From the sequence record PQ511148.1: a DNA stretch of 64,000 nt; one strand, 5' to 3'. The position numbers and the translations under genes are program-made. Positions 11,552 through 11,837 of the stretch are shown piece after piece. The first letter of the stretch is position 1. Each line of letters starts with the position of its first letter. The notes beneath the pieces were generated by a model, which did no database searches, was not told the origin of the DNA, and saw only the letters and a list, made by a program, of their open reading frames with translations. This DNA comes from Escherichia phage NHEP10.

Positions 11552-11639
11552 TATTTTTCCTTTCAATTCAGTATAAGAGAGTTAATTCTAACATTAATTT
11601 TATAAAGCGTAATAAATAATAGGTAACTAAGGAGATATT

Positions 11640-11837
11640 ATGTTTAAACTTCCATCGTTAATCAACGCTATTAAAGGCAATAAAAAGAAAACTGCTATCG
11701 CCGCAATAGTTGTAGGTGGCATTATTTCATGGAACTTCGGGATTGCACCATTGTTAGTTGCCCATGGTATTATAGTTCCTTCTGTTCCATTGGATACTGT
11801 AGTTGATTTGGCCTTTGCTATTATAGGGCTTGTTTAA
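11640..11837 (+). CDS. Small hydrophobic membrane protein (65 aa), plus strand
   Basis: Strong SD TAAGGAGAT 5 nt before ATG; hydrophobic throughout; one of two plus-strand genes. Confidence 0.5.
   Translation: MFKLPSLINAIKGNKKKTAIAAIVVGGIISWNFGIAPLLVAHGIIVPSVPLDTVVDLAFAIIGLV

Follow-up and report, generated by a model that had tools for sequence, protein, structure and literature searches.

The interval between genes 56 and 61

The window analysed here, that is the whole stretch of 64,000 nucleotides from Escherichia phage NHEP10 (PQ511148.1), belongs to a Mosigvirus, one of the T-even phages in the HX01/RB69 group. HX01 (NC_018855.1) aligns over most of the window at 94-98% identity (stated elsewhere in the analysis as 96-98%), and the 1.9 kb around the locus considered here are 98-98.7% identical to NHEP36, HX01 and many other phages. 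The minus-strand genes 56 and 61 are separated by an interval of 282 bp, which contains one plus-strand open reading frame (ORF) for a hydrophobic protein of 65 aa; the sole other ORF of at least 30 aa in the interval is antisense and 31 aa long. The features of the locus are the following.

11030..11551, minus strand: gene 56, dCTPase/dUTPase (phrog_173, E 1.6e-45; HX01 annotation)
11585..11609, minus strand: putative MotA-dependent middle promoter of gene 56 (sequence and homology)
11611..11618, plus strand: late-promoter-type box AATAAATA, 21 nt 5′ of the small-ORF ATG; predicted transcript start at ~11624
11629..11634, plus strand: Shine-Dalgarno sequence AAGGAG, 5 nt 5′ of the small-ORF ATG (read from the sequence)
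11640..11837, plus strand: small ORF, 65 aa plus stop (ATG start; ORF list; phrog_2024 match)
11834..11837, both strands: TTAA common to the convergent stops of the small ORF and gene 61 (sequence)
11834..12856, minus strand: gene 61, DNA primase (phrog_47, E 1.1e-101; 73% identity to T4 gp61)

The two convergent genes overlap by 4 nt at their stop codons, the TAA of the small ORF occupying 11835-11837 and the gene 61 stop 11834-11836 on the minus strand. These coordinates confirm the first-pass annotation, which had described a hydrophobic plus-strand ORF of 65 aa with a strong Shine-Dalgarno sequence and a stop overlapping that of gene 61. Its further statement that no dam-sized ORF lies between genes 56 and 61 agrees with the ORF list, and the order 56, dam, 61 that it gave for T4 is the order found in the T4 record.

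On the other flank, the gene 56 product is 72% identical to T4 gp56 from residue 1; the true start of the gene is probably the ATG at 11551 (MAHFNEC...), the TTG at 11566 given by the ORF finder being wrong. The 88 bp upstream of gene 56 on the minus strand contain a ribosome-binding site, a -10 element TAGAAT (11590 to 11585) and a MotA-like box CGCTTTA (11609 to 11603), the last two separated by a 12-nt spacer. This segment is conserved with RB33, with CJ20 and with the T4 56-dam spacer, where the counterpart is annotated in X01416 as the mot-box and -10 element of P(M)16.53. The stretch 11585..11609 is a probable MotA-dependent middle promoter of gene 56. In dam-less phages, the middle promoter of gene 56 and the late promoter of the small ORF would then stand back-to-back within ~35 bp, and in T4 dam would have been inserted directly after the MotA box. 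An ORF of 25 aa annotated in the HX01 RefSeq record (D299_gp164) corresponds to window positions 11541-11618 on the plus strand and spans the start and promoter region of gene 56; this ORF is probably spurious and is without support in the window.

Conservation and putative late promoter of the small gene

The small ORF is an ordinary conserved T-even gene, orthologous to the RB33 ORF that carries the note ‘dam.1’ in its record, and is already catalogued as a hypothetical protein. It matches phrog_2024 (‘unknown function’) with E 1.9e-27, residues 1-65 aligning with profile positions 1-65, and its product is identical to ‘hypothetical proteins’ deposited for many Mosigviruses. The T4 homologue, 66 aa long and 54% identical, is encoded at 17738-17938 (+) of NC_000866.4 on the strand opposite to dam and 61, where it sits in the unannotated 310-bp gap between these two genes; as in the window, its stop overlaps that of gene 61 by 4 nt in a TTAA. 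The RefSeq record NC_000866.4 has no CDS for this ORF between dam and 61, and the newer T4 record OZ209057 annotates it as phrog 2024. In the protein collection, the precise T4 sequence comes from read-assembly data only and lacks an accession at NCBI or UniRef. In RB33, a Tequatrovirus, the layout is 56-ORF-61 as in the window, with no dam at the locus.

Proteins of the window type were found by tblastn in 692 phage records; 151 further records carry a second subfamily, which is more divergent and was noticed first in Klebsiella phage kv_tblp2. All members tested of both subfamilies match phrog_2024 (E 1e-15 to 1e-27), and hhalign aligns the two subfamilies with 90.8% probability (E 1.2e-6). 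The slot between gene 56 and gene 61, with the small ORF on the plus strand and both neighbours on the minus strand, is kept in at least nine Tevenvirinae genera: Mosigvirus, Tequatrovirus, Gaprivervirus (CJ20), Dhakavirus (JS98), Mosugukvirus (PM2), Gelderlandvirus (SEA1), Kanagawavirus (Kosakonia phage 305 and IME523) and Moonvirus (CF1), as well as Klebsiella phage kv_tblp2. The 4-nt stop overlap with gene 61 recurs in T4, kv_tblp2, Kosakonia phage 305 and CF1; CJ20 has no such overlap, and a gap of 118 nt instead. At the 56-61 locus of Karamvirus Ent31 and Tegunavirus TG1 the small ORF is absent. The gene is widespread, not universal.

Beyond the family itself, no relative emerged from Pfam, NCBIfam or structure searches. 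Pfam and NCBIfam scans of three members gave no match even at E 10, and word-indexed homologue searches returned close relatives only. An exhaustive HMMER search of 1.84 billion representatives yielded 6 clusters and missed the second subfamily, which was later linked by tblastn and PHROG; a scan of IMG/VR gave only 7 loci. Foldseek against viral models retrieved the family itself and weak matches at ~27% identity, further fold searches being judged uninformative for a single-helix protein. The HX01 genome contains no paralogue of the small ORF. One candidate homologue of 61 aa (P0040), from the Logan assemblies SRR27475519, SRR27475520 and SRR24798469, was rejected: it differs from the T4 protein by A>V, S>F/L, P>L, T>I and H>Y only, all changes that fit C->T conversion. 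It is most likely T4 control DNA that was assembled after bisulfite or enzymatic conversion, and no real variant.

The comparative data identify the small ORF as a real protein-coding gene under purifying selection. Pairwise dN/dS values are 0.09-0.22 within genera and 0.21-0.34 between genera, a distance at which synonymous sites have reached saturation, and 25 columns are invariant between Mosigvirus and Tequatrovirus. A GGAG/GGAGG core occupies the same place in all 11 lineages compared. The proteins share a core motif in all lineages, made up of a basic patch, a hydrophobic helix with W-N-[FLY] and then P..A...G.x[LV]P.V.x[DE]; the window protein has the core residues W31, N32, P37, G43, P47 and D52.

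Late promoters of T4 consist of an 8-bp box, TATAAATA, at -13 to -6, in which A at -13, the commonest variant, occurs at 9 of the 50 listed sites (PMC2988020); T4-related phages frequently have A instead of T at this position (PMC1524935). Such promoters have their box roughly one helical turn 5′ of the start site and lack a -35 element. The window box AATAAATA agrees with TATAAATA at seven of its eight positions, the deviation being an A at -13. The motif NATAAATA lies 13-22 nt 5′ of the ATG in 9 of the 11 lineages, and three have a perfect TATAAATA. The boxes found upstream of the small ORF in other phages, with their distances to the ATG, are listed here.

T4: GATAAATA, 21 nt
RB33: AATAAATA, 22 nt
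JS98: AATAAATA, 21 nt
CJ20: CATAAATA, 16 nt
PM2: GATAAATA, 13 nt
kv_tblp2: perfect TATAAATA, 19 nt
Kosakonia phage 305: perfect TATAAATA, 15 nt
IME523: perfect TATAAATA, 16 nt
SEA1 and CF1: ATTAAATA only

The window itself provides an internal control for this motif. On both strands of the 64 kb, NATAAATA occurs 8 times against ~39 expected from base composition, a depletion of about 5-fold, at 11023(-), 11611(+), 32148(+), 43863(-), 54585(-), 54808(-), 58849(+) and 61851(-). By the criteria of the scan, five of these copies are followed by a Shine-Dalgarno sequence and an ATG-initiated ORF, namely the small ORF, gene e, rI, gene 49 and a 70-aa ORF; soc and an ORF for an HNH endonuclease were also read by eye downstream of a copy, and the copy at 58849(+) has no obvious start after it. 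A count given elsewhere in the analysis puts six of the 8 copies 5′ of genes, including e, rI, 49 and soc. The variant AATAAATA itself recurs 5′ of gene e and of rI. The motif seems to be avoided in the window except where it is functional. Its position 5′ of the small ORF is conserved across lineages, it is depleted elsewhere in the window and its copies mark known late genes. The box is a putative late promoter, and late transcription of the small ORF is, as a prediction from sequence, well supported. A scan of 11400-12000 revealed no sigma-70-like promoter on the plus strand 5′ of the small ORF and no terminator after it. Literature on ‘dam.1’, T4 ribosome profiling and T4 transcription start site maps yielded nothing on the small ORF, and no transcript, ribosome-footprint or peptide support for it was found in the accessible text.

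The HNH-type endonuclease ORF (238 aa, 32201-32917, plus strand) has a perfect TATAAATA at 32148-32155, 45 nt 5′ of it. It sits in ~800 bp that are absent from HX01, between 45.2 and 46, and RB33 carries a plus-strand ‘intron-like endonuclease’ in the same slot (L033, 12448-13164). This ORF probably encodes a free-standing homing endonuclease.

Distribution of dam and DNA modification

The search for a methyltransferase combined Dam-type queries, a scan for catalytic motifs and the annotation of records. T4 Dam and E. coli Dam as queries gave best E values above 1 both in the 64-kb window (1.1 by tblastn with T4 Dam) and in the complete HX01 genome (1.5-2.2), and there is no homologue in either. 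No methyltransferase figures among the 295 annotated features of HX01, and [DNS]PP[YFWH] motifs occur only in unrelated ORFs of 109 and 159 aa. The absence of dam is genome-wide for HX01 and, for NHEP10, covers the 64-kb window.

In T4-like phages at large, dam is a variable, mobile accessory cassette that is non-essential, and its absence is normal variation, as indicated by the dam-less layout of many genera and by the other loci at which the gene is found. The Dam homologue of RB43 (153259-154110) adjoins nrdC/49 and that of Klebsiella phage SmallBear (86931-87716) lies between denB and ndd, both being 53-60% identical to T4 Dam. T4-type Dam (at least 90% identity) is present in 182 records, compared with 533 for the T4-type small ORF, and two of five Tequatrovirus metagenome contigs in IMG/VR have dam while three have none. 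T4 and about one-third of its close relatives carry dam between the gene 56 promoter and the small ORF. The dam-less arrangement 56-ORF-61 recurs, with homologous sequence between the genes, in Mosigvirus, part of Tequatrovirus (RB33 and three of the five IMG/VR contigs), Gaprivervirus, Dhakavirus, Mosugukvirus, Gelderlandvirus, Kanagawavirus, Moonvirus and a Klebsiella phage; it is the common state and probably the ancestral one.

Two further observations concern the surroundings of the dam locus. Tequatrovirus relatives are 98-99% identical to T4 in gp61 and only 69-74% in gp56, a contrast that indicates a sharp mosaic boundary in the dam/56 region, adjoining the T4 homing endonuclease gene segF. 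In the Tequatrovirus contig IMGVR_UViG_2974787500_000001 (L015), an ORF of 186 aa (1832-2392, minus strand) abuts the dam start, between dam and the small ORF. It belongs to phrog_8706 (function unknown), has a D...EIK motif and shows a weak, sub-threshold match to the Pfam DpnII endonuclease family (E 0.0045, 16.8 bits against a cutoff of 23). This ORF may encode a Dam-linked nuclease, which hints that the dam cassette may derive from a GATC restriction-modification unit.

Cytosine modification in Mosigvirus takes the form of arabinosylated 5-hydroxy-dC (PMC13390438; PMC6024577), and a Mosigvirus sugar cluster has been linked in the literature to this arabinosylation. A cluster of this type lies in the window at 21861-25966 on the minus strand, with a SIS isomerase, an NTP-transferase (561 aa) and a Peptidase_U32-like ORF; it adjoins gene 43 (26007-28718), in the place where T4 has imm and imm.1. 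The arabinosylation pathway, which is specific to Mosigvirus and has been described before (PMC13390438), is separate from dam. That modification is independent of dam is seen in RB33, which lacks dam at the locus and in the 55 kb sampled and yet has gene 42, a-gt and b-gt. The frequency of GATC was considered as possible support for a link between dam and modification and rejected. The observed/expected ratio of this tetranucleotide is 0.18 in the window (38 observed vs 212 expected), 0.22 in the HX01 genome, 0.32 in 58 kb of T4 (dam+) and 0.33 in 55 kb of RB33. In each of these four data sets GATC alone among the 4-bp palindromes shows strong depletion, the other 15 having ratios of 0.65-1.3; depletion is strongest in Mosigvirus and alike in dam+ T4 and in RB33.

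Predicted membrane protein, alternative readings and known systems

Hydropathy of the small protein is high from residue 18 to the C-terminus. Its five basic residues all lie within positions 3-17 (including K12 and K15-17), with none beyond position 17; the acidic residues are confined to positions 52 and 56, and the protein ends in ...DLAFAIIGLV. AlphaFold2, run with an alignment of 10 sequences, gives a model with a mean pLDDT of 77.5 and a pTM of 0.48, which has helices at 3-11, 15-41 and 51-62 and a Pro-rich loop at 42-50. Taken with the positive-inside rule applied to the basic N-terminus, the model suggests an N-in/C-out inner-membrane protein that spans the membrane once and ends in a short helix, either periplasmic or interfacial; this topology rests on a shallow alignment, and the C-terminal helix might re-enter the membrane.

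It is likely that the conserved ‘dam.1’ ORF encodes a late inner-membrane protein, that the absence of dam is unrelated to it and that the dam-less layout is probably ancestral. The small ORF lies on the strand that carries only late transcripts in T4-type phages; early and middle transcripts of T4 are all of one polarity (PMC2988020). A gp55-type late promoter, AATAAATA at 11611-11618, would produce a short leader of ~16 nt with a strong Shine-Dalgarno sequence. In the protein so made, the basic N-terminus with K12 and K15-17 would be on the cytoplasmic side, and the membrane would be crossed by a single long helix (approximately residues 15-41) that includes the invariant Trp31-Asn32. An acidic tail of ~24 residues, in which Gly43, Pro47 and an acidic residue at position 52 are conserved, would be periplasmic. 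An invariant polar Asn within a membrane helix usually serves helix-helix association. The protein might then act late at the cell envelope through helix-helix contact with another membrane protein, a step proposed tentatively. As tentative is the choice of process, with lysis timing or lysis inhibition as the likeliest and membrane-bound head assembly as the second. No tie of the protein to lysis was found, the small ORF never lying near lysis genes. The bolder proposal, that this overlooked late inner-membrane protein, conserved in the majority of enterobacterial T-even genera, is an unrecognised part of a classic T4 envelope process, in which it would take part through its Trp-Asn helix, is rather unlikely; the processes meant could be the timing of lysis, signalling in lysis inhibition or the initiation of proheads at the membrane.

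Other explanations of the locus bear on the frame itself, on its transcript and on its relation to dam. A chance open frame in an AT-rich spacer might be suspected given the shortness of the ORF and its missing annotation in the T4 RefSeq record, but conservation in nine genera, dN/dS values well below 1, the full-length HMM match and the conserved Shine-Dalgarno sequence and box refute this and make it barely conceivable. The main role could also reside in the late transcript, which would continue past the small ORF as antisense RNA to the gene 61 3′ end; antisense pairing or the collision of polymerases would then reduce the expression of primase at late times. In nearly all lineages the small ORF is convergent with gene 61, and usually overlaps it, in spite of great plasticity on the other flank. 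Downstream of the small ORF there is no terminator-like site, and some sites of T4 are transcribed on both strands, at different times of infection (PMC2988020). Strong purifying selection acts, however, on the amino-acid sequence, the Shine-Dalgarno sequence is conserved, and in CJ20 the gene persists although 118 nt separate it from gene 61. A further, antisense function of the locus might exist, but it cannot account for conservation of the protein; as the main role it is improbable. Slightly less probable still is the proposal that the small ORF stands where a dam gene was lost and that the loss of Dam reflects a different state of DNA modification. It is in keeping with the lack of dam in the interval, the window and the HX01 genome, and with the different cytosine modification of Mosigviruses (PMC13390438), for which the window has a matching sugar cluster. 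It is largely refuted by T4's own sequence, since T4 carries both dam and the small ORF. The dam-less layout is moreover the majority state across nine genera, RB33 has genes for hmC glucosylation with no dam at the locus or in the 55 kb sampled, GATC is depleted alike in dam+ T4 and RB33, and other T4-like phages have dam at different loci. The first-pass annotation was thus right that dam has no homologue here, tblastn and the motif scan being negative for the 64-kb window and the HX01 genome, and the conservation of the small ORF that it named as a check was found (692 and 151 phage records; dN/dS 0.09-0.34). Neither of the observations that it listed as refuting was made in this material. 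Of its idea about the small ORF and dam, the conserved ORF and the absent dam stand, and a substitution of one for the other does not, T4 having both. Its talk of a loss probably has the direction wrong in view of the dam-less layout of nine genera, and the proposed fit with a different modification state is unsupported, no link having been found in the genes of RB33 or in GATC depletion.

The small protein has also been considered as a small holin or a pinholin-like pore former, which is an unlikely reading. The protein is small and hydrophobic and has at least one transmembrane domain (hydropathy; AlphaFold2 helix 15-41), its gene has a putative late-type promoter resembling the ones 5′ of e and rI, and the conserved Asp52/Asp56 face together with Trp-Asn could line or pack a pore. 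Class II holins and pinholins such as S68 of phage 21 are likewise ~65-70 aa long, with a hydrophobic Gly/Ala-rich first helix, and are expressed late, as predicted for the small ORF. The OE5505 homologue is named ‘Holin’ (UniRef/BFVD), but this is an unreviewed automatic label, and it was rejected because the protein has no charged C-terminal domain, ending in ...IIGLV, and no endolysin linkage. The endolysin gene e starts ~50 kb away, at ~61.8 kb on the other strand. There is no holin match in Pfam, NCBIfam or PHROG, and a T holin is already present in these phages (HX01 gp217). In contrast to class II holins and pinholins, the protein has only one full-length transmembrane helix by prediction, is devoid of a charged C-terminal domain and is not encoded beside an endolysin.

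The absence of dam in the window matters little; it is the usual state and no special loss. Of more consequence is that NC_000866.4 omits the gene at 17738-17938 (+), which is conserved in at least nine genera, is under purifying selection and has a conserved late-promoter box. Proteomics, CRISPRi, transposon screens and transcript quantification based on the T4 reference annotation miss this gene. Were the protein to act in lysis control or head assembly, a textbook system would gain a component.

Among known systems, the T4 RI antiholin, Imm, Sp and Ac are likewise small, with an N-terminal membrane helix and a C-terminal part outside the cytoplasm. They have no sequence similarity to the small protein, and RI has a folded periplasmic domain whereas the tail of the small protein is only ~24 residues long. 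In T4, Imm and Sp are products of early genes on the other strand. In the window, rI has the same AATAAATA variant at a spacing similar to that of the small ORF. T4 Dam has the genomic neighbourhood alone in common with the small ORF. In the case of the phrog_2024/‘dam.1’ family, length, slot, TTAA overlap and upstream late-type box are all the same as for the window ORF, with no difference of substance, and the window ORF is a member of this family.
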